DNA of 41,998 bases from Chiloscyllium plagiosum (GCF_004010195.1 NC_057718.1:54541062-54583059), one strand, 5' to 3'; positions 1 through 34,626 are shown, counted from the first letter of the stretch. Notes: generated from the sequence alone by a model not told the origin. A program made the numbers and translations.

Positions 1-165
1 TTGACCTCTTTCCACCTATCACATTTCCGACGCCCCTCCCCCAAGTCCCTCCCCCTACCTTTTATCTTAGCCTGCTGGACAAACTTTCCTCATTCCTGAA
101 GAAGGGCTTATGCCCGAAACGTCGATTCTCCTGTTCCCTGGATGCTGCCTGACCTGCTGCGCTTT
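1..165 (+). mobile_element. Penelope-like element 3' end (pLTR region)
   Basis: C-rich 3' UTR, then cctgaagaagggcttatgcccgaaacgtcg...gatgctgcctgacctgctgcgc, homologous to the 3' end of the RT/GIY-YIG element at 5538-7465. Confidence 0.85.
92..127 (+). ncRNA. Minimal hammerhead ribozyme motif (Penelope-type)
   Basis: CUGAAGA (96-102), extra A, stem II GGGC-UUAU-GCCC (104-115), GAAA (116-119), palindromic ACGU, cleavage triplet GUC (121-123). Confidence 0.75.
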
Positions 166-559
166 CTAAGAATAGTTATGGCACTGTATTGGCTATTTAA
201 TTAATAAAAGAAGTTTATAATAAGGCAGTAGTATTAGGGTACTTTATTCTTTGCATAAATCAGACAAGTCAAACTGACAGTGTTTGCAGGACAAATTCTT
301 GAAATGCATTTGAAACTGCTAGAACAATCCATTGCGGAACAACCAGAGAACAGGATAGTTTAATCTTGTCTTGTGTGATAAGAAAGAGTTAATTAATAAT
401 GTCATAATTCTTGTCTAGTAATATCATAATCCTGCAGAACTTCACATTTCAGAATGACACACTTGATTCCAAAATTAGACTCTAAACTTAAATGAAGCAG
501 TTGCATAGGTATGTGTGATGATTGGGTATGATACTTTGTAAAACCGGATGGAAGGATAT

Positions 560-1411
560 GATAAAGCAATGGCAAACACTTAAATAAGAGTTGCAGGTAA
601 ATAGGATAGTGGAGAAGGCATTTAGTCTGCTTGACTTTATTGGGCAATGCGTTGAGTATCGGAGTTGGGAGGCCATTTTGCGACATTGGCTCGGCTACTT
701 TTGGAGTATTGTGTGCAATTCTGGTCTCCCTTCTACAAGAAGGATGTTGTGAAACTAGGAAGTGTTCAGAAAAGATTTATGATATTGGAGAGTTTGAGCT
801 ATAGGGAGAGGCTGAATAGGCTAGGGCTATTTCCCTGGAGTGTCAGAGGCTGGAAGGTGACCATATGGAGGTTTATAAAATCTTGAGGGACATGGACAGT
901 AATAGACAAGGTCTTTTCCCTGGGGTGGCAGAGTCCAAACCAAGAGGGATTAGATTTTGGGTGGGAAGGGAAAGATATAAAAGGGACCAAAGGGACAACT
1001 TTTTCATGCAGAGGGTGAGTATGGAATAAGCTCCAGTGGAAATGGTGGAGGCTGGTAAGATTACAGCATTTAAAAGGCATCAGAATGGGTATATGAATAG
1101 GAAGGGTTTATAAGTAAAGAGGCCAAATGTGACAAATGAGACAAGATTAATTTAGGATATCTGGTTGGCACAGGCGAAAGTGAGGACTGCAGATGCTGGA
1201 GATCAGAGTCTAGATTAGATGGTGCTGGAAAAGCACAGCAGGTCAGGCAGCATCCAAGGAGCAGGAAAATCGACGTTTCGGGCAAAAACCCTTCATCAGG
1301 AAAATACTTTCATCCTGATGAGCTTTTGCTCGAAGCGTCAATTTATCTGGTTGGCATAGTGAGTTGGACTGAAGAGTCTGTTTCCTTGATGTATATCTCT
1401 ATGACTATAAC
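560..1411 (+). mobile_element. CR1 (HER1-like) LINE 3' fragment, interrupted by a Penelope mini-insert
   Basis: LEYCVQFWSP...LSYRERLNRLGLF, the CR1 ORF2 C-terminus; ends in the tctctatgactata tail. Confidence 0.85.
1171..1343. mobile_element. Fold-back Penelope mini-insert with 13-bp TSD
   Basis: TSD tatctggttggca at 1158-1170 and 1344-1356. Minus-strand pLTR with an intact hammerhead core (1272-1299), followed by a degenerate plus-strand core (1315-1340). Confidence 0.85.
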
Positions 1412-1449
1412 TAAATATTTTGGAAGTCTTATTGAATATTAGATGGAAA

Positions 1450-2202
1450 TTTTTCTGCCTGGAAGTCAGTGTTGAGTGGGGTCCCACAGGGCTCTGTTCT
1501 TGGGCCTCTGCTGTTCGTAGTTTTTATAAATGACTTGGAGGTTGAAGAAGGGTGGGTTAGTAAATGTGCAGATGACACAAAGGTTGGAGGTGTCGTCGAT
1601 AGTATCGAAGGCTATTGCAGGCTGCAGCACGACATAGACAGGATGCAGAGCTGGGCTGAGAAGTGGTAGATGGAGTTCAACCTGGATAAATGCGAAGTGA
1701 TGCATTTTGGAAGGTCAAACTCGAATGCTGAATATAGGATTAAAGACAAGATTCTTGGTAGTGTGGAGAAACAGAGGGATCTGGGTGTGCAAGTACATAG
1801 ATCCCTCAAAGTTGCCACCCAAGTGGATAGGGTTGTTAAGAAAGCACATGGTGTTTTGGCTTTCATTAACAGGGGGATCGAGTTTTAAGAGCCACGAGGT
1901 TTTGCTGCAGCTCTACAAGTTCCTGGTGAGACCACACTTGGAATATTGTGTCCAGTTCTGGTTGCCCGACTATAGGAAAGGTACAGAGGCTTTGGAGAGG
2001 GTGCAAAGAAGGTTTACCAGGATACTGCCTGGAATGGAGGTGGCGGTGGAAGCAGAGTCATTAGGGACATTTAAACAACTGCTGGACAGGCACAGTGAGT
2101 TGAGGGTGCATGGGTGAAGTTATTTTGTGTTAGGATTAAGCTTCTGCACAACATCATGGGCCAAAGGGCCTATTCTTTGCTGTACTTTTCTATGTTCTAT
2201 GA
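1450..2202 (+). mobile_element. CR1 LINE RT fragment with internal deletion
   Basis: SGVPQGSVLGPLLFVVFINDL...KCADDTK RT motifs; KFLVRPHLEYCVQFW; ttctatgttctatg tail. Confidence 0.9.
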
Positions 2203-2385
2203 ATATGCTTTCTACTGACAATGAAAAAAATCCACAGGAAGAGTAATCCAATTGTGCCTAATTAAACAGTTCAAGGATGCATTTAGATTTTTATAAATAC
2301 ATATGTTGCAAAGAAGAATAATAAGGCTGAGGATTGGACGTGTTTTCAACCAAAAATAGTGATAGACGGACAAAATAGAATTAGA

Positions 2386-2549
2386 TAGGAGAAAGTGAGG
2401 ACTGCAGATGCTGGAGATCGGAGCTGAAAATGTGTTGCTGGAAAAGCGCAACAGGAATTCCTGAAGAAGGGCTTATGCCCGAAACGTCGATTCTCCTGCT
2501 CATTGGATGCTGCCTGACCTGCTGCGCTTTTCCAGCAACACATTTTCAG
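2386..2549. mobile_element. Fold-back Penelope mini-insert with 15-bp TSD
   Basis: Direct repeat caaaatagaattaga at 2371-2385 and 2550-2564. Inverted arms gctgaaaatgtgttgctggaaaagcgca / tgcgcttttccagcaacacattttcagc enclose a hammerhead motif. Confidence 0.88.
2454..2496 (+). ncRNA. Minimal hammerhead ribozyme motif (Penelope-type)
   Basis: CUGAAGA (2461-2467)-A-GGGC-UUAU-GCCC-GAAAC-GUC (2486-2488); core identical to the copy at 96-123. Confidence 0.75.
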
Positions 2550-2559
2550 CAAAATAGAA

Positions 2560-4790
2560 TTAGAGCCTAAAACAGCAAGAATTATAAAAACGCATTTTAA
2601 AATTTCTACGAGTATGTATGAAGGGGTAGGGTGACGAGAGTAAACATGGGCCGCAACAGCTGAAACAGCAGAAATTATAAGGGGAATAAGCAAATGACAG
2701 ACGTTATATAAATATTTTGTATGCTTCTACACAATAGCGGACACAAACCTGAATAGGAGAACAGACCTGATAAATGCAGAGTTGGAGAGATGCTATAGGA
2801 GGAAGGGATTTAGATTCATGAGATAATAGGGCTGTGTCTCTGCTGGCTGGGCAAATTATATTCCAGCACGATCAGGACCAATATCCTCACAGTGGCATTC
2901 ATTTATTCTGTGGGGCAGGGTTTAAACTAGAGCTGGAGAGAGCAAGGAATCTTGAGCAGGGAGACACGAGAGGGAACCACAGTTAGGAATGAAAGGTAGT
3001 AGAGTAGAAAGCAAAAACAGTTGCCAGAGGAAACAGGACTAGCATTAAGTAGGGCAGAGTTTGTTTAAAAAAAGCAGAATTGTTAAGACAAATCTTGATT
3101 CTGCAGAAAATCTAAATATTTCTCAGTTCATAGACTGTTTGCAATAAATTGGATGATTAACAATGCAAATAGTTATAAACAGGTACAATATCATTGTAAT
3201 TGCAGAAACATGACTGTAGACTGGGAACATCCAAAGGTATTCGATGTTTGGAATGGACAAGGAATAGGAAATGAGGATGGCATTATAAGTGAAGGATAAA
3301 ATCAGTGCAGCTGCGAGAAGGGATTTTTGCTGAGAAAACTTAGATGTAGGATCAGTCTGAGTGGAGTTAAGAAACACGTGACCCATTTGTGCAATAGGCA
3401 AGATGACTTTTTGGCTTGATGGCAGGTATGTTTAGTGGCAAATACCACTCCTGTTGCTACTCGTAATATCACTAGCTTCCCCTAAAGATTGGACTTTTGT
3501 GTTGGGTAACCTGAGATAGACTGGGCACTTCTCAGGACCAAAATGGTAGCTTTGTGCCTGTTCATGATTTTGAAAATATACAGTGAAAAATGATCTAATC
3601 AGGGTAGCCATTATCTTACTGGACAACTTTGTATTTAATTTCATCCTTCAAGCTTGCACAGTGCGCAAGGGTATGTGACCTTATTTACAAGGTTACTGAT
3701 AATATAAATGTTAGCCTTCACTGCAAGAAGATTCAATCCAGGAGCAAAGAGTCTTATTGCAGCTCTATAATACCTTGGGACCACACCTGGAGATGTGTGC
3801 AGTTTTGATATTTGTACCGAAAGGAAAAATATACTTGCCATATAGGGCATGTTTCAAAAGTTAGTTAAACTGATTTCTAGGATGGCAAGAATTTCTTATG
3901 AGTAAAGATTGGAACAACTAGGCCTGCATTCACTGGAGTTTAGAAGAATGAGAGGGAATCTTGACAAAAAGTGTACATTTCTTGCGGGGCTGGGCAGACC
4001 GAAGACATGCTGTTTCCCAAGACTGGGCGGGATGGGTCTAGAATAAGTAGTAAAAGTCTCATGATACTGGGTAAACCATTTAGGACTGAGATGAGATATT
4101 TCTTCACTGAGGATTGTGAACCTGTTGAATCCTCCACTGTAAAAGGCTGTGTAGGCCAAATCACTGAACATATTTGAAAAATAAGTAGATTTCCTGAGAC
4201 TAAAGGTGGCAAGGAGTATAAGGAGAGCCCAGGAGTACAGTGTTGAGTTTAAATAATTAAATGGTAGAGCAGGCTCTATGAACTGAATGGTGTACTTTTA
4301 CTTTCTATGTTTTTCTGTCAGAAATGGCAGGGAACTGAAAATCTAATGAGTTGGGGAATTAAAATAATTACTTTTAGTAAAAGAAATATCGAAGAAGTTA
4401 ATTGAACTAATAAGTGACATGTACCCTGATGGCTTACATTTTGTAACAATTTTACACAATTTTTAAAAGAAATGCTGCAGGTGTAGTGGATGCATTGACT
4501 GTGATTTTAAATTCCCTGGATTCTAGATCAGTCCCAGTGGATTGGAGCATAGAAAATGAAATGCTGCTTTTCAAGAAAGAAATGGAAAAGAAAATGGAAC
4601 AACAGATCAGTCAGCTGATCACTTGGCATTGGAAAACTGATGCAATGGATTTTAAGGAAGTAGTAACAGGCAATTAGAAAATCATAATGTGATTGTGATG
4701 AGTCAGCGTTGTGTAAAGAAAAGAAAATGGTGGTTGACAAATAATATTTAGTGTTTGAGGTTTTGTTGGGAGGTAGATATAGGAGAAAAG
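2560..4790 (+). mobile_element. Patchwork of old CR1 fragments, with a short minus-strand Penelope-like piece near 3410-3620
   Basis: Degenerate CR1 ORF1, endonuclease and RT-like text, with a 3' end near 4310. Minus-strand FGPEKCPVYLRLP resembles the PLE linker region. Confidence 0.55.
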
Positions 4791-5537
4791 GAAAAGCCTC
4801 TCTGTGATTAGATGGAAACTTTAAGGTTGGCTATCTGAAAGTGTTTGCAAAATTTTAGTTCTGCCAGCCACACTTATCCCTTCTTTGTGCAAAAGAAAAT
4901 ATTTTGTACCAGCAGTATCTTGGGGCTTATGCTTTAATAATTAAATACTTCTGTCGATAAATCTTTTTGAAGTTTTGAAGGTTGAGTAACCTGTGCATTG
5001 TTAGCAATGTTTATACAAAAATTACAATGTCAGTTTTGTTCATCCTTTTGTACTTGTCTTTTAACAATTCACTTTTTTTTCTGTTTGAAACAGAAAATGG
5101 CATGCGTTGACATGGAGTAAAGCACCTCTAGGCACTTTTACAAGGAAGTGCACAACCTGCTTTCATTTCACAATTGCATTAATTCAAATTATCCAACTTT
5201 ACATTTGCTGCTAAATTTACATAGTTTGCCTTTCTATTAATGCTACATCATACAAATTATTGGCTAATGCAATCGTTTTCGTACAAAAATAAATTGTCAG
5301 AAACAGACTATTTGTTTTTCTGTTTTTTTTGTTGTCTGCTACTGGTGTTGACTACATCTAGTTTGTAACATCTCAATAGAGTTTTCAAAAGTAAATATAC
5401 ATTATTGCAGTGCAATCGTTATTGTCTTTTACTTCATACATCTATATACTTCATGCTTCACAGAATAATAGAATCCCTACAGTGCTGAAAGAGGCTATCT
5501 TCCACCTCCCCACCCTATCCCTATAACCTCACAATTC

Positions 5538-7465
5538 CACCTGGACACCCCGCGCTGGCCTATTACCTGCCCTCGACCTCTTCACTTCCAACTGCCGCCG
5601 GGACATTAACCGCCTCAACCTGTCTACCCCCCTCCCCTACTCCAACCTCTCACCCTCACAACGTGCAGCCCTCCAATCCCTCTGCTCCAATCCCAACCTC
5701 ACCATCAAGCCAGCGGATAAAGGGGGCGCAGTGGTAGTCTGGCGCACTGACCTCTACACCGCTGAAGCAAAACGCCAACTCGAGACACCTCTTCCTACTG
5801 CCCCCTCGACCATGACCCCACCCCCCATCACCAAACCATCATCTCCCAGACCATACAGAACCTCATCACCTCAGCAGATCTCCCACCCACAGCTTCCAAC
5901 CTTATAGTCCGGGAACGCTGCACTGCCCGGTTCTACCTCCTTCCTAAGATCCACAAGCCTGACCACCCTGGCCGACCCATTGTCTCAGCATGATGCTGAG
6001 ACACTGGGTCGGCCAGGGTGGTCAGGCTTGTGGATCTTGGGAAGGAGGTAAAACCGGGCAGTGCGGGGTTCCCAGACTATGAGGNNNNNNNNNNNNNNNN
6101 NNNNNNNNNNNNNNNNNNNNNNNNNNNNNNNNNNNNNNNNNNNNNNNNNNNNNNNNNNNNNNNNNNNNNNNNNNNNNNNNNNNNNNNNNNNNNNNNNNNN
6201 NNNNNNNNNNNNNNNNNNNNNNNNNNNNNNNNNNNNNNNNNNNNNNNNNNNNNNNNNNNNNNNNNNNNNNNNNNNNNNNNNNNNNNNNNNNNNNNNNNNN
6301 NNNNNNNNNNNNNNNNNNNNNNNNNNNNNNNNNNNNNNNNNNNNNNNNNNNNNNNNNNNNNNNNNNNNNNNNNNNNNNNNNNNNNNNNNNNNNNNNNNNN
6401 NNNNNNNNNNNNNNNNNNNNNNNNNNNNNNNNNNNNNNNNNNNNNNNNNNNNNNNNNNNNNNNNNNNNNNNNNNNNNNNNNNNNNNNNNNNNNNNNNNNN
6501 NNNNNNNNNNNNNNNNNNNNNNNNNNNNNNNNNNNNNNNNNNNNNNNNNNNNNNNNNNNNNNNNNNNNNNNNNNNNNNNNNNNNNNNNNNNNNNNNNNNN
6601 NNNNNNNNNNNNNNNNNNNNNNNNNNNNNNNNNNNNNNNNNNNNNNNNNNNNNNNNNNNNNNNNNNNNNNNNNNNNNNNNNNNNNNNNNNNNNNNNNNNN
6701 NNNNNNNNNNNNNNNNNNNNNNNNCCTTCCCCTGCCACCACAGGAACTGTAAAACCTGCGCCCACACCTCCTCCCTCACCTCCATCCAAGGCCCTAAAGG
6801 AGCCTTCCACATCCATCAAAGTTTTACCTGCACATCCACTAATATCATTTATTGTATCCGTTATCCCGATGCGGTCTCCTCTACATTGGGGAGACTGGGC
6901 ACCTCCTAGCAGAGCGCTCTGGGAACATCTCCGGGACACCCACACCAATCAACCACACCGCCCTGTGGCCCAACATTTCAACTCCCCCTCCCACTCTGCC
7001 GAGGACATGGAGGTCCTGGGCCTCCTTCACCGCCGCTCCCTCACCACCAGACGCCTGGAGGAATAACACCTCATCTTCCGCCTCGGAACACTTCAACCCC
7101 AGGGCATCAATGTGGACTTCAACAGTTTCCTCATTTCCCCTTCCTCCACCTCACCCTAGTTCCAAACTTCCAGCTCAGCACTGTCCCCATGACTTGTCCG
7201 GACTTCTCCGACCTGCCTAGCTCCTTTTCCACCTATCCACTCCACCCTCTCCTCCCTGACCTATCACCTTCATCCCCTCCCCCACTCACCTATTATACTC
7301 TATGCTACTTTCTCCCCACGCCCACCCTCCTCTAGCTTATCTCTCCACGCTTCAGGCTCTCTGCCTTCATTCCTGATGAAGGGCTTTTGCCCGGATTGTC
7401 GATTTCGCTGCTCCTTGGATGCTGCCTGAACTGCTGTGCTCTTCCAGCACCTCTAATTCAGAATT
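5538..7465 (+). mobile_element. Penelope-like retroelement (Neptune-type), 5'-truncated, contains assembly gap
   Basis: LTIKPADKGGAVVVW and RFYLLPKIHKPDHPGRPIVS (PLE RT N-terminus); Cys linker FPCHHRNCKTC; GIY-YIG NIIYCI...CGLLYIGET; 3' end carries a mutated hammerhead (7373-7400). Confidence 0.92.
6085..6724. other. Assembly gap (N run)
   Basis: Run of n. Confidence 1.
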
Positions 7466-7944
7466 ACCATAGATAGCCCACCTAGTCTGCACAACCATGG
7501 ACACAATGGGACAATTTAGCATGGGCCAATCCACCTAACCTGCACGTCTTTGGGCTGTGGGAGGAAGCCAGAGCACCCAGGGGAAACCCACGCAGTCACA
7601 GGGAGAATGTGCACATTCCACACAGTCACCCAAGGCTAAAATCAAACTTGGGTTCCTGGCGCTATGAGGCAGCAGTGCTAACCACTGAGCCACCATGCCG
7701 CTGTAATTTTGTATGCATTCCTGAAGATGAGTCATCTTAATTGAGTACAGATAGGGTTAGAATGATGGTGCCAACTAGTATCTTTTATTCCTATTCTGTA
7801 TGTTATAAAGTTGAATGGTTTGCTTTCAGGTGTTCGGATGTAGGAACAAAAGTTTAAGTTATTGCCCATTACGATACTCTTTGCAGTAATGTAGAAAGCA
7901 AATAATGCACAACTCTGATTATTAATCCTCTATTTTGGTTTTAG

Positions 7945-8049
7945 CCAACCACAGGAGGCCTGTATAAACCTGATGACTACATAATTATCACTACAGTGCA
8001 TAATGAAAGGTACAAATGTATGTTGCCTTCAGTTGGGAGTGAAGACCAG
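7945..8049 (+). CDS. ERLEC1: ERLEC1 coding exon 2
   Basis: ttttag|CCA...CAG|gtaagc; 105 nt, phase 0/0. Translates [35 protein letters not shown], matching human ERLEC1 [28 protein letters not shown] (recalled sequence). Confidence 0.96.
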
Positions 8050-8942
8050 GTAAGCCTTGTATTAAAGTACATTTTGTTGGAGATGCTTACTTCATAACTA
8101 TATAATGTAATGGGTTATGTATTACTTTACATTGTATGTATGTTTTTTTAAAATTTAACATTGATTTCAGACTACAGTCAATAACTCCAAGTTAATTTAA
8201 GTCTGTGTATTCTGTTTGTTTTTCTGTGCAAAGATGTAATGATTCTTGCTTAAAAGCAATCTATTTTGTGTAATAAACCTGTTTTTGAAAGTATGCAAGT
8301 GCTTTTTTTTTCCAACTGTCTTCACATTCAGGATTGGTGCCAGAAGACTGGAAATTTGAAAATGTAACTTTTTTGATGGAAAAGAAAGCATAAACTTAGC
8401 TCAACAATTATAGCCCAGTTGGTTTGACTTAATTGACGGGTGGGGAAGCTTGCAGAAACGATAATTCAGGATAAAATTAATAGTCACAAATTTAGATTCA
8501 TTAAAGAAAGCCAGCTTGTGTTTTAAAAGCAAAAATTGTAACTTGCAGGACCTTTGTGAAGAGGTAACAGAGTTGAGGGCAATGCAACTGATACATGGAA
8601 TTCCAAAAGTTATCTGATGCAGTGTCACTCAACAAACTTAAGTAAATGTATAGTTAATGGGATAAAGGTTTCAGTGGCAGCATGAACAGGAACTGGCTGA
8701 ATGGTACCCTGGTTAATGGATGGCTCTTTGGATTGGATGTAGCTTTAGAGAAGAGTTCCCCAGCGGTCAGTGCTGGAACCCTTAGTTTTTCTCGTATATT
8801 GACGGCTTAAACCTTTAGTTTCAACATTTGTGGATGGTTCAAAACCCTGGAGGCATTGTAAATTGAGGAAGATGTAAATTGAGGAAGATGGTGCAAAACT
8901 TCAGTAGGATTTGGTCAAATTGGTCAGAAAATGACAGATTGA

Positions 8943-9271
8943 AGCTCAAAACAGAGAAATGTAATGATTCATTTATGTAGGAACGACTTAGAGAGATAAA
9001 CAGCACAATTCTAAAGGGGAATCAACGAGTTGTGGGACCTGGTGAATATATGCATTAATCATAGAACATAGAAGAATACAGCGCAGTACAGGCCCTTGGG
9101 CCCAGCTCAAAGCAGAGAAATGTAATGATTCATTTATGTAGGAACGACTTAGAGAGATAAACAGCACAATTCTAAAGGGGAATCAATGAGTTGTGGGACC
9201 TGGTGAATATATGCATTAATCATAGAACATAGAACATAGAAGAATACAGCGCAGTACAGGCCCTTGGGCCC
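8943..9271. repeat. Tandem duplication (161/168-bp units)
   Basis: 8943-9103 and 9104-9271 differ by two substitutions and one extra catagaa unit. Confidence 0.9.
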
Positions 9272-10395
9272 TCGATGTTGCGCCGATCCAAGCCAAACTG
9301 CACACAATATTCCAGATGTGGCCGTACCAGAGTCTTATACAACTGCATCATGACCTCAGGACTCCGGAACTCAATTCCTCTACCAATAAAAGTCAGTACG
9401 CCATATGCCTTCCTCACCGCACTATTTACCTGGGTGGCAACTTTCAGAGATCTGTGTACATGGACACCAAGATCCCTCTGCTCATCCACACTACCAAGTA
9501 TCCGACCATTAGCCCAGTACCCCATCTTTTTGTTATTCTTCCCAAAGTGAATCACCTCGCACTTAGCTACATTGTATTCCATCTGCCACCTTTCTGCCCA
9601 GCTCTGCAGCTTCTCTATATCCTGCTGTAACCTGCCATATGCTTCCTCACTGTCAACAACTCCTCCGACTTTTGTGTCATCCGCAAACTTGCTCACCCAA
9701 CCTTCTAACCCCTCCTCTAGGTCATTTATAAAAATGACAAACAGCAATGGTCCCAAAACAGATCCTTGCGGAACACCGCTGGTGACGGCACTCCAAGATG
9801 AACCTTTGTCATCAACTACTACCCTCTGTCTTCTTCCATCCAGCTAATTCCTAATCCAAACCTCCAACTCACCCTCACTGCCATACCTCCGTATTTTTTG
9901 CAGTAGCCTATCATGGGGAACCTTATCAAACGCCTTACTAAAATCCATATATACCACATCTACCGCTTTCCCCTCATCAACTTCCTTCGTCACCTTTTCA
10001 AAGAATTCAATAAGGTTTGTGAGGCACGTCTTGCCCTTCACAAAACCATGCTGACTATCCTTGATCACATTATTCCTATCCAGATGTTCATAAATCCTAT
10101 CCCTTACAATTCTCTCTAAGACTTTGCCCACAATAGAAGTGAGACTCACCGGCCTATAGTTACTAGGGTTATCCCTACTCCCCTTTTTGAACAAGGGAAC
10201 CACATTTGCTATCCTCCAGTCTTCTGGCACTACTCCTGTAGACAAAGAGGACATAAAAATCAAGGCCAATGGCTCTGCAATCTCCTCCCTTGCTTCCCAG
10301 AGAATCCTAGGATAAATGCCATCAGGCCCAGGGGACTTATCTATTTTCACCTTTTCCAGGATTTCCAACACCTCCTCTCTACATACCCCAAAGCC
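9221..10395 (-). mobile_element. Young CR1 LINE fragment (RT domain)
   Basis: ORFs 9844..10371 (KSPGPDGI, NYRPVSLTS, QHGF, YMDFSKAFDKV) and 9220..9756 (KFADDTK), separated by a stop; (ttctatg)n tail; internal deletion after EYCVQF. Confidence 0.95.
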
Positions 10396-19309: not shown

Positions 19310-19560
19310 CTAATTCGAATTTGTGAAGCGAAGCAGTACAACAGTGTTTGATCGCAGGCAGATTTTTGTTGTCAATGGCAAAGTGACTGCATTTATTTTG
19401 AAGAAAGGTGCCCACAGAGATTTAGCCATGCAGATGGATTTCACCTTCCCCTGTGTTAATTTGATTCTGGCTCCAGCTCAAAATCTCCAGCAGCTGTAAT
19501 ATCATCAAGAAGACTAAACAGCCTATCACATTGAACACAGGAAGCCAACAAGTTAAATGC

Positions 19561-19650
19561 TGAAAAATGTGTTGCTGGAAAAGTGCAGCAGGTCAGGCAG
19601 CATCCAAGGGTCAGGAGAATTGACGTTTCGGGCATAAGCCCTTTTTCAGG
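19561..19650 (-). mobile_element. 90-bp Penelope pLTR mini-insert with exact 10-bp TSD
   Basis: agttaaatgc at 19551-19560 and 19651-19660. The insert is a hammerhead motif (CUGAAAA variant) plus the downstream pLTR segment. Confidence 0.88.
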
Positions 19651-19754
19651 AGTTAAATGCACAAGTCATCCTTCCCTTTTAATCATTTTGATAGGCAGTT
19701 TGATGACAGGCATTTTTCCATCTGCAAGAGATGAAAGGGGAGTGCAGTCTCAAA

Positions 19755-19930
19755 TTCATAAACGAAAACAATGCTGGAGAGACTCAGCAGGTAAGGCAGC
19801 ATCTGTGGAAAGAAGACATAGATAAAATTTTTATTCTGATATAACTCTTTCAGAACTGAAAGGGGCTGGAAAATGGTGGTTTTGGTCTGTTGACAAAGAG
19901 AGTGGGAGTGAGTGGAACAGGTCACGAGGG
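19755..19930 (-). mobile_element. Older Penelope-like 3' end
   Basis: aatgctggagagactcagcaggtaaggcagcatctgtgga, a diverged version of the same pLTR motif. Confidence 0.6.
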
Positions 19931-20827: not shown

Positions 20828-21005
20828 AAAACAAAAACTACATTGAAAACCTGCGCAACAGTTCTTTGGTTCTGAGGAAGGATCACTGGACACAAAATGT
20901 TAAGACTACTTTCTCTCCAAAAATGTTACCAGACCTGCTGAATTTCTCTGGAATTTCTGCTTTTGTTTGTTTCAAATCTCCACAGTTCAATGTTTTCTGG
21001 TTTGC
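20828..21005 (+). mobile_element. Older Penelope-like 3' end with decayed hammerhead
   Basis: tctgaggaaggatcactggacacaaaatgtt...atgttaccagacctgctgaatttct. Confidence 0.55.
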
Positions 21006-22363: not shown

Positions 22364-22502
22364 ATTTAAATCCTCCCCAGTTAATGACATATTTTGTCAG
22401 TCAGTACACGGCTCACCATTAAGGCCTAAAAGTCTTGAACAGTTAGAAAAACAGCAAGAGGATCTGCTGAAACCACCTTTCACTACCCAGAGAGCCCAAG
22501 AG
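22364..22502 (+). CDS. ERLEC1: ERLEC1 coding exon 8
   Basis: gctcag|A TTT...GAG|gtaagt; 139 nt, phase 2/0. FKSSPVNDIFCQSVHGSPLRPKSLEQLEKQQEDLLKPPFTTQRAQE. Confidence 0.96.
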
Positions 22503-22571: not shown

Positions 22572-25294
22572 TGGGGAGATAGGGAGGACCACAGATGCTG
22601 GAGAAGTCCGCATCAATAAAGTGTGGCACTTGAAAAAAGCACAGCAGGTCAAGCAGCATCTGAGGAGCAAGAAAGTCAATGTCTTGGGCGTAATCCTTCA
22701 TCAGGATTAGGGAGGGAGAATGGGGCTGAGAAATAAATAGGGGGTAGGACTAGCAGAAAGATAGATGAGATGGCGATCAGTGGGCAAAGGTAGGAGGTGA
22801 TAGTGATAGGTCGATGAGAAATGTGTGGAGCCACTAGGTGGGAAGGAAGATGGACAGGTAAGTCAGGTCAAGAGGACGGAGCCAGGTCAGGTCAAGAGGA
22901 TGGAGCCAAGTCAGAGGGTTGGATCTGGAATGGGGTGGGGAGAAGGGACATTTGGAAACTGGTGAATTCCGTGTTGAGGCCATGTGATTATAAGCTACTG
23001 ACGTGGAAGGTGAGCTGTTCCTCTGCCAGTTTGTGGGTGGCCTTGTTTAGGTGGTAAAGGAGGCCCAGAATGGACATGTCACTGGGGGAGGGGTAGGATA
23101 GATGGTCATAAGAAGATAAGGTTGGTTGGTGCAAATGGACCAGAAATGTTCCCTAAACTGTTTGCGCTTGCTCTCTCTGATATAGAGGAGACCACATTGT
23201 GAGCAATGGATGTAGTAAATAAGGTTTGAGGGTATGCAAATAAATCTCTGCTGGATTTGGAATGATCCTCTGCCACCTTGGACGGAGGTGAGGGGGGAGT
23301 GTGGGTGCCAGGGGAAGATGCCAGGTGTGGAGAGGAAGTTGGTGGAGAGTGTAGAATTAACGAGAGAGTTGTGGTGGGAATGCTCCCTGCGGAATGCAGG
23401 TAGGGGTAGGGAGGGAAATATATTTTTGGTGCTGGAGTCTGACTGTAGCGCTTCTTCCTCTCCCGCCTACCCACCCAGTCCCCCTCCACTGATACTCTCT
23501 TTTGATTGGCTGAACTGATCCTCGCCCTAAACAACTTTTCCTTTCAATCCTCCCACTTACTACAAACGAGAGGGGTGGCTATGGGTACCCGTATGGGTCC
23601 CAGCTATGCCTGGCTCTTCATAGGATATGTGGAACAGTCCATCTTCCACAGTTACACAGCACCAACCCCCAACTTCTCCTCTGCTACATTGATGATTGTA
23701 TCAGTGCTAACTTGTGCTCTCATGAGGAGTTTGAACAGTTTATCCACTACACCAACACCTTCCACCCTGACCTCCTATTTACCTGGACCATCTCCGACAC
23801 CTCTCTCCCCTTCCTGGACCTCTCCCTCTCTGGCGACCGACTTTACATTGACATCTATTTCAAACTCACTGACTCCCACAGCTACCTTGACTGCACCTCC
23901 TCCCACACCCACTCCTGTAAAATGCGCGGTCCTTTACTCCCAATTCCTCCAACTTTGCTGTATCTGCTCCCAGGATGAGCAGTTCCAATCCCAGACGGGT
24001 TCTCCTACTTGTAGGACTGTAATTTCCCCTCCTGTTATCAACAATGCCCTCAATTGCATCTCCTCCATTTCCTGCACTTCCACCTTCAAACCCCAAACAA
24101 TCCTCTTTGGTCCTCACATTCCACCTCACTAATCTCCAAATCCAGTGCATCATGCTCTGCCATTTTCGCCACCTACAGACAGTCCCCAACACCAAAAATA
24201 TATTTCCCTCCCCATCCCTATCTGCATTCCATAGGGACCGGTCCCTCCGTGATTCCCTAGTTAGGTCCACATTCCCCACCAATCCTGTCTCCACATGTGG
24301 CACCTTCCCTTGCAACCGTAAGATGTGCAAAACTAGTGCCCACACATTTCTCTCTCCCCCCCCACCCCCCACCCAACCTCCGGACCAGGTCCCAAAGGAT
24401 CATTCAAAATCAGAGATTTACTTGTACACCCTAGAACCTCACTTACTGCAGATGTGGTCTCTTCTACATCAGCGAGACAGAGCACAAATTCGCAGGACAG
24501 TTCAGGGAACATTTCTGATCCGCTCGCACCAACTAACCTTCATCTTCCTGTGGCCATCTATTTCAACTCCCCCAGTAACATGTCCATTCTGGGCCTCCTC
24601 CACTGCCGAAACAAGGCCACCCACAAACTGGAGGAGGAGCACCTCATCTTCTCCCACTGGAGCCTACAACATTGAATACGCTAGTTTCACAATCTCCCAT
24701 CCACGGGAGTGGCACTGTGGCTCGATGGTTAGCACTACTGCCTCAAAGTACCAGGGACCTGGGTTTGATTCCAGCCTCAGGCAACTGTCTGTGTGGAGTT
24801 CGCACATTCTCCCCGTATCTGTGTGAGTTTCCTCCCATAATCCAAAGATGTGCAGTTTAGGTGAATTGGCCATGCTAAATTACCCATTGTATTCAAGGAT
24901 GTGTAGGTTAGGTGCATTAGTCAGAGGTAAATGTAGGATAATAGGGTAAGGGGATGGGTCTGAGTGGGTTAGTCTTCAGAAGATCCATGTGCACTTGTTG
25001 GGCACACTGTTTCCACACTGTAGGGGTTCTATGATCCAACCCTTTGATTCAGCTCTGATTTGTTGACTTGACCTGACCTACTGTCCACCTTTCTTCCCAC
25101 ACATCTGCTCCACCCTTCCCACCAACCTACCACTATCACCTCCTACCTTTCCACAGCCCCATCCCCCCCCATTTATTTCTCAGCCCCCTTGTCCCTCCCC
25201 TGTCCTGATGAAGGGTTATGCCCAAAACATTGACCCTCTTTCTCCTCAGATGCTGCCTAACCTGCTTTGCTTTTACCAGTGCCACACTTTATTA
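22572..25294. mobile_element. Penelope-like element with inverted arms (minus about 22572-23450, plus about 23450-25294)
   Basis: Plus arm: QTRGVAMGTRMGPSYA and YIDD-like RT motifs, SLPFLDL, FPCNRKMCKT, GIY-YIG remnant. The minus arm repeats the 3' part. Degenerate TSD acttctatgtataact (22556-22571) / acttctgcgtataatt (25295-25310). Confidence 0.9.
24704..25033 (+). mobile_element. HE1-type V-SINE nested in the Penelope element
   Basis: ggcactgtggctcgatggttagcactactgcctc A box, gggtttgattcc B box, V-domain-like core, actgtaggggttctatg tail; atcca on both flanks. Confidence 0.88.
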
Positions 25295-29260: not shown

Positions 29261-30170
29261 GATACAATAGTTAAAAAATTGTAACAATCTGGTTTTCTTA
29301 ATTTTATGGTATTCTTTATATACAAATTAGAGAGTGTTCATACATATTTTTCCCATGGCTGAACTCATTAAGATAATGAGTAACTAAGCCAAACACCAGG
29401 AAGCATACAAGATCAGTATTTATTGAGTTAAATGATATACACCTAGATGATCCATAGAATTGCTGCTTTCAAAATGAGACAATGATGATGTGGAGGATGC
29501 ATCACCCAGAATTTCTACTCCTGATCACTATGCAGTGAAATATTCATATGTGGCCATTAAACCCATTAGGATGCTCCACCAAGGAGTCCCTGGCTTTGAA
29601 ATAAAGAGGAGAAACATGGCAAAGCAACAACATATTTGCATATTCACTTACTCAGGTTCGCGAATATGAAGATTTTCATGTCATAGATTGCAATGTAAAT
29701 TTGGCAGTAACTTGTCTCTCACTGAGTTACTAGCTTTAGTATAGGGAACAGTAATGCTTGGTGGGTGTGACAAGCATTGGTGCGTGTCTTAAATAGTGTT
29801 GATGACTTATTAAAGAACCACAAAAGATCGCTACCATGTATATAATTCATGCTGTGCTCAAAGCCTGGAAGTGCTAAGTGCAGACACTGAGTGCAAAAAG
29901 TGGGGGATAAGATAGGAGGAATCATTGGACTCAAAATGGTAACTGTTTATTCTTCCAAAAAATGCTGCCAGAGTTGCTGAGTTTCTGCAGCATTTTCTGT
30001 TTTTAATATATGGCCTGACTTTAAGGTGAAGGCTAGTGGCTACTTGGTGTGCTAGTCTTCCCCAGAAGATAGCCTCTAATACTTTCTGTCTCCAAACTGA
30101 TTTTTCTTTCGTTTTGTTTTAAGCTATGACAAACACATTACAAGATAATTACTTTTTATATTGTCTAAAG

Positions 30171-34554: not shown

Positions 34555-34626
34555 GTGGAATCACCGATAATTTGTAAAATTCTGGACACAGCTGATGAAA
34601 ATGGATTACTTTCCGTACCCAGCTAA
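34555..34626 (+). CDS. ERLEC1: ERLEC1 last coding exon 14 (to TAA stop)
   Basis: ttctcag|GTG...[29 protein letters not shown], matching the human C-terminus [23 protein letters not shown] (recalled). Confidence 0.98.

Follow-up and report, generated by a model that had tools for sequence, protein, structure and literature searches.

Hammerhead ribozyme cores in the presumed first intron of ERLEC1 of the shark Chiloscyllium plagiosum ride on truncated end pieces of a Penelope-like element

The DNA upstream of the second exon of ERLEC1 in Chiloscyllium plagiosum contains two identical copies of a minimal hammerhead ribozyme core, both in the sense orientation of the gene, which raises the question of whether the two can pair within one pre-mRNA and cut the intron that carries them. 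An earlier note on this DNA had proposed such a double hammerhead. The window, meaning the whole stretch that was analysed (41,998 nt; NC_057718.1:54541062-54583059), holds the following cores.

96-123, plus strand: core A, CUGAAGA-A-GGGC-UUAU-GCCC-GAAAC-GUC, with C3 at 96 and a predicted cut at 123/124
2461-2488, plus strand: core C, with the same boxes as core A and a predicted cut at 2488/2489
1299-1272, minus strand: core B, a CUGAUGA version with one U·G pair in stem II

The reading favoured here, at a probability of about 0.9, is that these cores ride on 5'-truncated end pieces of an abundant Penelope-like element, that the pieces entered the ERLEC1 intron as separate insertions and that they are likely inert passengers in the pre-mRNA.

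The coordinates that the earlier note gave for the three cores are correct, and the cut sites it named agree with the predicted ones. A hammerhead scan, which it had put forward as a check, is divided in its outcome. A strict descriptor run on both strands (CUGANGA, 0-1 extra nucleotide, a perfect stem II, GAAA, a complementary 15.2/16.2 pair and UH) finds exactly three matches in the window, at 96 and 2461 on the plus strand and at 1299 on the minus strand, while Rfam returns 0 hammerhead matches over the window at gathering score and no hammerhead family among the five weak matches with E up to 10 in positions 1-3000. Twenty local shuffles, searched on both strands, gave a single match to the strict descriptor in total, which indicates that the three motifs are not due to chance. 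Permitting one mismatch adds 19649 on the minus strand. The loose boxes CTGANGA..GAAA alone occur 6 times in the window against a mean of 5.1 expected, i.e. at chance level. The exact 28-nt core pattern was found in 0 stretches of a metagenome collection and 0 of a prokaryote collection; a relaxed pattern retrieved three viral contigs, and the one inspected has no likeness to the shark repeat beyond the core.

Cores A and C are identical at 28/28 nt. The extra nucleotide after position 9 and before 10.1 is an A, the 10.1-11.1 pair is G-C in all seven aligned copies of the motif described below, and the palindromic 15.2-16.2 pair is C-G in copies A, B, C and E. Helix III is absent from A, B and C, and a palindromic ACGU stands in its place. 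Helix I of A and C is composed of C-G, U-A, U·U and A-U (2 bp, a U·U at position 3 and 1 bp) and is thus imperfect, as had been remarked earlier. The U·U is also present in copies B and D; helix I of copy G has 3 bp, and that of copy F has 2 bp, a mismatch and 1 bp. None of the catalytic positions has been lost from the young copies. The core boxes, together with a location in terminal repeats, bear out the assignment to the Penelope-type minimal type I hammerheads in which palindromic ACGU replaces stem III.

ERLEC1 is encoded on the plus strand, with 13 coding exons located by tblastn from 7945-8049 to about 34558-34623, and its exon bounds in the window carry AG/GT. The closest protein, P0001, belongs to the ERLEC1 cluster of Chiloscyllium punctatum. 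The first exon in the window is exon 2.

7945-8049, plus strand: ERLEC1 exon 2, 35/35 residues identical to P0001 59-93, with AG/GT bounds

Residues 1-58 of P0001 have no credible tblastn match anywhere in the window and exon 2 begins at 7945, so positions 1-7944 lie upstream of exon 2. The sense location claimed for cores A and C stands to this extent; the placement in intron 1 is presumptive, positions 1-7944 probably being intronic with exon 1 outside the window. A pyrimidine tract with an AG 18-25 nt before the core was considered as a splice acceptor and rejected, as the candidates rank 592, 302 and 1172 of 2713 AGs and score 3.7 or less, below all 13 true acceptors (3.8-17.0).

The core and the 45-95 bases that follow it are present eight times in the window, within 41 kb: A at 96 (+), B at 1299 (-), B' at 1314 (+), C at 2461 (+), D at 7373 (+), E at 19649 (-), F at 22704 (-) and G at 25205 (+). 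Five of these, at 1314 (+), 7373 (+), 19649 (-), 22704 (-) and 25205 (+), are decayed copies that come in addition to the three described earlier. Relative to the gene, five of the eight copies are sense and three antisense, and the intact cores are divided into two sense and one antisense. The core is broken in 5/8 copies, several times at CpG sites. The copies and the elements to which they belong are as follows.

1-165, plus strand: copy A, the 3' end of a Penelope-like terminal repeat, cut short at 165 and running off the window start
1172-1302, minus strand: copy B, an antisense stub with core 1299-1272 and about 100 nt including a 36-nt tail at 1172-1207
1312-1343, plus strand: copy B', a short piece of decayed hammerhead in inverted orientation, at the 5' end of insertion B (nhmmer E 2.8e-8)
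2387-2455, minus strand: inverted 5' part of insertion C, with a 36-nt tail (2387-2422) and a 33-nt arm (2423-2455)
2457-2550, plus strand: copy C, a sense stub with its core in the loop of a 33-bp hairpin (2423-2455/2518-2550)
5536-7460, plus strand: decayed Penelope-like element D, with the N-terminal part of a reverse transcriptase (RT) and a terminal repeat with a mutated hammerhead at 7373
19559-19651, minus strand: copy E, a stub of about 90 nt whose core has G8 changed to A
22574-25292, no single strand: decayed Penelope-like element F/G, with an inverted 5' part carrying a tail and with both cores decayed

Copy A matches copy C at 96% over 92-165. Positions 1-91 have no match elsewhere in the window, are highly repeated in DNA reads (depth 400,263 at place 52, run X1) and probably belong to the terminal repeat. 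Element D shares 82% identity with P0121 over 5536-5990 (tblastn; P0121 has Pfam RVT_1, DKG and YIDD) and features a DKG motif at 5716, a C-X4-C-X2-C linker at 6733 and a GIY-YIG-like remnant at 6879; an assembly gap of 640 bases (6085-6724) lies inside it. Element F/G is laid out as a tail and hammerhead F (22704, -), an RT with YIDD at 23685, an endonuclease remnant and the terminal hammerhead G (25205, +), and its RT also matches P0121. The CxxC-GLLYIG-like motifs at 6879 and 23187 lie in broken frames and are seen by motif only; Pfam analysis of nine translated fragments gave no endonuclease match and scored only one LINE RT, and the homolog search with the endonuclease remnant provided no hits at E 0.001 or better. 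The cores are end segments of a Penelope-like retroelement, the same segment ending elements D and F/G. By its sequence, the C-X4-C-X2-C linker of D points to a possible membership of the Neptune or Nematis clades.

The segment is also abundant outside the window. In 3/3 DNA runs the contig depths summed over the three hammerhead bins come to 0.9-3.4 million, a figure that is not a copy number, and the unique intron bins 184-549 and 2563-3477 have a depth of about 8-24. The read depth of the segment is about 10^5x that of the unique intron, and this contrast indicates massive repetition of the segment. With eight copies in 41 kb, a sense pair 2.4 kb apart requires no special explanation, and two intact sense cores per intron are to be expected, which calls for caution in reading function into such pairs.

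The short copies are bounded by the footprints of individual insertions.

1158-1170, plus strand: left target-site duplication of B, 13 bp, TATCTGGTTGGCA
1344-1356, plus strand: right target-site duplication of B, 13 bp
2371-2385, plus strand: left target-site duplication of C, 15 bp, CAAAATAGAATTAGA
2550-2564, plus strand: right target-site duplication of C, 15 bp
19551-19560 / 19651-19660: target-site duplication of E, 10 bp
587-1409, plus strand: LINE 3' fragment interrupted by insertion B, with paralogues in the window

Random position pairs match as well as these duplications in 10/2910 cases for B, 9/2910 for C (15 nt or more) and 19/2910 for E. No convincing target-site duplication was identified for elements D and F/G, where the best matches are 6 nt. 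The LINE paralogues match 587-1170 and resume at 1344 with a 13-nt overlap (37403/37415), so that the empty site of insertion B is seen. A further LINE remnant in the window, at 9847-10395, carries Pfam RVT_1. The arms of insertion C match at 32/33 and its junction (2452-2463) is a 12-bp palindrome; insertion B has a tail and an inverted fragment, and F/G has a tail on one side only. C carries a duplication of its own, and what separates it from A is LINE remnants and copy B, so A and C are not the two repeats of one element. A tandem retrozyme unit was also considered and rejected, as 0/7 tandem rows overlap a hammerhead copy.

Copies of apparently different age lie at the locus. In run X9, from organism B, whose long contigs carry 2.4-4% other letters, there is a 2181-nt contig whose fit to 164-616 starts no earlier than its letter 1727; the 1726 preceding letters are unlike 1-163, and letter 1727 falls where copy A ends. 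A contig of run X1 spans the right junction of A (139-726). Copy A is apparently absent at this site in organism B, as judged from a single table row for that run. Contigs of X9 cross C at its two junctions (2178-2408 and 2509-3945), and copy C is older and common to organisms A and B. Between copies A and C there are differences at 0/28 core and 3/42 flank positions (Fisher p = 0.27). The core is thus no better conserved than the flanks and no selection on it is seen by this comparison; the identity of the two cores, remarked on earlier, is no higher than the flanks predict. RNAalifold analysis of seven copies recovers stem II only, with two-sided change in 0/4 pairs.

The integration footprints suggest how the stubs arose. 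The protein of the element would begin to copy the element's RNA at either of two points, ahead of the tail end or at it, would work back roughly to the hammerhead's front edge and would insert the product at a staggered cut. Youth would explain why A, B and C look intact; D, E, F, G and B' have decayed. The short copies B, C and E start 3, 4 and 2 nt 5' of C3 and not at the cut site, so their templates are taken to be uncut RNA. Such a start point fits either the transcript start or a stop of the reverse transcriptase at the front edge of the ribozyme, and it is the only part of the locus that touches an open question.

On the same evidence it is possible, if on balance doubtful, that the motif is no longer catalytic and has been kept as a structural mark of the mobile RNA, as a stem II hairpin, an RNA 5' boundary or a protein-binding site. 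The whole cores left by uncut templates in B, C and E are consistent with this, as are the U·U in helix I of A, B, C and D and the ribozyme mutants reported in the cited part of PMC11167929 to be without effect on insertion in vitro. Against a loss of catalysis, the young copies retain every catalytic position, and the published motifs include examples with a 2-bp helix I. A structural mark is compatible with the passenger reading given at the outset, from which it differs only on the role of the motif inside the element.

Folding predictions bear on what the cores could do within the host transcript. Copy B is complementary to A at 66/73 nt and to C at 76/83 nt, with predicted net energies of -93.9 kcal/mol for the A·B duplex and -104.2 kcal/mol for C·B. 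The hammerhead dimer of A and C is predicted at +5.2 kcal/mol relative to stem II alone when its short helices are used. The inversion junction of C offers by chance a longer helix I (CAGGA with UCCUG), and with this extended helix at one site the dimer is predicted at -2.7 kcal/mol and the single site cutting A at -6.9 kcal/mol, so that one trans site is plausible on paper. In the folds of 1-1400 and 1-2600 the A core is paired with B at 0.87 and 0.85 per nt respectively. The fold of 1-2600 gives the A-C stem III a pair probability of about 1e-46 to 1e-48, and pairs the C core with B at 0.02 per nt. The 33-bp hairpin of C has an MFE of -71.3 kcal/mol (z -5.7). Without B the A-C stem III has a probability of 1e-30, partly because nested models forbid pairing into the C loop; when nothing but the two cores is folded, one next to the other, the values are 2e-3 for stem III and 5e-5 and 2e-6 for the two helices I. 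The ViennaRNA models omit tertiary stabilisation of the core, Mg2+, proteins, A-to-I editing and kissing or pseudoknot pairings, so these tiny probabilities are not literal, but the predicted gap of 90 kcal/mol exceeds such model error.

The order of transcription would reinforce the predicted outcome. B is transcribed 1.2 kb before C, and A would therefore be occupied before its partner C exists. In the nascent transcript, A would zip with antisense B over about 70 bp before C is made, C would then close into its own hairpin, and the weak double hammerhead of A and C would have practically no chance of forming. An antisense copy between two sense cores changes the fold completely, and the predicted pairing with and blocking by the opposite-facing B make the motifs likely inert in the host gene.

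An improbable alternative is that single intronic copies such as C cut only when remodelled by the element protein or by a trans partner supplied by the many other copies that are transcribed, for example in germ cells, and so now and then place a mild load on host transcripts. In vitro, protein assists the hammerhead of Anolis Poseidon (cited part of PMC11167929), and the low pairing of the C core with B in the fold of 1-2600 leaves this core unsequestered by B. RNA of the segment is also present, in that RNA run X21, sampled to about 2 in 100, includes 1598 reads from the segment on both strands, 94% of which continue into unlike sequence and so come from other loci; the depth of the unique intron in this run is 0 to about 1, and reads this sparse show no position at which molecules start or stop in numbers. 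On the other side, the cited part of PMC11167929 describes no RNA-seq ends at the Poseidon cut site, the helix I of these copies is less strong than that of most published examples, and the gene carries the copies in both orientations with no visible purge of the sense ones, although the numbers (5 sense, 3 antisense) are tiny. Slightly less probable still is a broader version, in which the very many intact sense stubs in shark introns are conditional cutters of nascent host RNA, cleaved in the presence of Penelope protein or of free stub RNA, and antisense copies nearby, B for one, are built-in quenchers that pair with them. Were it true, the sense-antisense-sense arrangement in ERLEC1 intron 1 would be a compact test case. 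Should cleavage take place in vivo, the introns of shark genes would hold a very heavy load of RNA-cutting motifs, and the role of Penelope hammerheads would be testable by strand-bias statistics.

The double hammerhead of the earlier note, here taken to mean that A and C pair through ACGU and both helix I strands, cut intron 1 and affect ERLEC1 output, is not supported and is very unlikely. In its favour, neither core lacks any part, the two are identical and run in the sense of the gene, the junction of C gives the extended helix I noted above for the site cutting A, and minimal hammerheads, which as monomers show no cleavage, have published if low activity as dimers (cited part of PMC4209133). 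Against it, the binding of the intervening antisense B to A is predicted to be stronger by about 90 kcal/mol, C is inside its hairpin, helix I contains a U·U, the copies are separate insertions, A is apparently missing in organism B, and splicing usually puts up with slow cuts in an intron, being reported to stay efficient where a hammerhead cuts the intron (PMC2995048, in the passage citing Dye 2006 and Fong 2009).

The passenger reading places these cores among systems that are already described. The class of minimal hammerheads was defined, and placed in Penelope terminal repeats, by Cervera and De la Peña in 2014 (PMC4209133), and the cited part of that paper describes most copies as scattered singles of truncated elements and also reports close pairs on opposite strands. 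The shark cores share with this class CUGANGA with an extra nucleotide, the G10.1-C11.1 pair, GAAA, C-G at 15.2/16.2, a GUC triplet, the lack of helix III and the location in Penelope terminal repeats; an Acropora Neptune example (PMC4209133 Fig. S3), whose stem II has 4 bp and whose loop has 4 nt, is built almost alike. They differ in their shark host, the words 'shark' and 'Callorhinchus' being absent from two supplement files of PMC4209133, and in helix I, which has 2 bp, a U·U and 1 bp here against 3-5 bp in most of the examples in the cited part of the paper and 2 bp in a few. Read depth points to a copy number far above the 4,000-9,000 reported there for coelacanth and Xenopus. No paper on Penelope hammerheads of sharks was found by the literature searches; one chondrichthyan genome is included in bioRxiv 10.64898/2026.07.22.740005, the supplements of which may bear on the matter.

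The architecture of the insertions is likewise familiar. Penelope-like insertions are described as 5'-truncated, with a neighbouring copy in inverted orientation, a palindrome at the junction and, at one end, a tail of 30-40 bp (cited parts of PMC8557442 and PMC3846280), and in the lizard element the tail corresponds to two reverse-transcription start sites (cited part of Frangieh 2024, PMC11167929). The copies here resemble these endonuclease-bearing insertions in the inverted copy, the junction palindrome, the one-sided tail and the target-site duplication, and the elements share the DKG and YIDD motifs of Penelope-like elements and the linker known from Neptune and Nematis. In contrast to them, the copies here are extreme stubs (about 90-170 bp) that start at the front edge of the hammerhead, and the duplications are 10-15 bp as opposed to 8-10 bp in the rotifer insertions of the cited sources. 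The lizard Penelope hammerhead is reported in the same part of PMC11167929 to cut only with the protein of the element and not to be needed for insertion.

Two further kinds of hammerhead-bearing sequence are comparable. Non-LTR retrozymes (cited parts of PMC7229834 and bioRxiv 10.64898/2026.07.22.740005) are also non-coding and Penelope-derived with a type I hammerhead, and the vertebrate ones work better as dimers; they are described as head-to-tail tandem repeats of about 150-450 bp in which neighbours can dimerise, whereas the shark copies are dispersed and lie in both orientations. Domesticated intronic hammerheads of amniotes (RECK-type; cited part of PMC6155905) also lie in sense in an intron of a host gene. 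They are few, ultraconserved and canonical, with tertiary contacts, unlike the shark cores, which are members of a repeat family both huge and young, are without helix III, draw no match from Rfam and include a copy, A, that is apparently missing in a close relative. The cores of the ERLEC1 intron are of a known kind, ordinary transposon stubs that provide one more shark example with clean integration footprints.

The short duplication-flanked copies of the Penelope-like end segment begin at closely similar places relative to C3, the first core nucleotide of the hammerhead. In all three, the start point lies 2–4 nt 5' of C3 rather than at the cut site:

1302, minus strand, start of a short duplication-flanked copy
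2457, plus strand, start of a short duplication-flanked copy
19651, minus strand, start of a short duplication-flanked copy

Six of the seven contig joints inside copy A (the copy with its core at 96) fall at 88–103, among the joints listed (12 of 601 rows). The depth in DNA read run X1 is 400,263 at place 52, far under the mean of 2.37 million for the bin 1–183. Taken together, the joints in copy A and the low depth at place 52 indicate that most genomic copies appear to start at the front edge of the hammerhead.

Copy C (core at 2461) has a palindromic inversion junction that happens to allow a longer helix I, pairing CAGGA with UCCUG (2452–2498), and this predicted helix is the sole feature that would favour trans cleavage. 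At position 3 of helix I, copy G (core at 25205, part of the older insertion at 22574–25292) has G-C where copies A–D have U·U. The pre-mRNA also contains two long inverted repeats:

93–165 with 1230–1302, long inverted repeat
2423–2455 with 2518–2550, long inverted repeat

Both are likely double-stranded in the pre-mRNA and are candidate substrates for A-to-I editing.

Three further, more diverged stubs look like other Penelope end families:

20860–20990, plus strand, diverged stub seen by eye, CUGAGGA box decayed
19771–19809, minus strand, diverged stub, nhmmer E 8e-6
29962–29993, plus strand, diverged stub, nhmmer E 0.02

An older Penelope insertion at 22574–25292, in the intron downstream of the exon at 22364–22502, has a complete architecture, with an inverted 5' part carrying a tail followed by an RT and endonuclease remnant; it contains a SINE-like insert at about 24700–25030. 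Within element D, a decayed Penelope-like element, a perfect abutting inverted repeat of 92 bp (5900–6084) adjoins an assembly gap; it could represent a fold-back insertion, or else an artefact of the assembly. Contigs from all three DNA runs break at about 3931–3951, possibly at a polymorphic insertion, and one contig of run X5 continues with 97 other letters. A 161-bp tandem duplication (8943–9271, 94% matches) is located at a LINE insertion end.

Outside the shark, viral contig L002 has at 401–428 a hammerhead-like core whose stem II is 4 bp long; beyond this core the contig is unrelated to the shark repeat.
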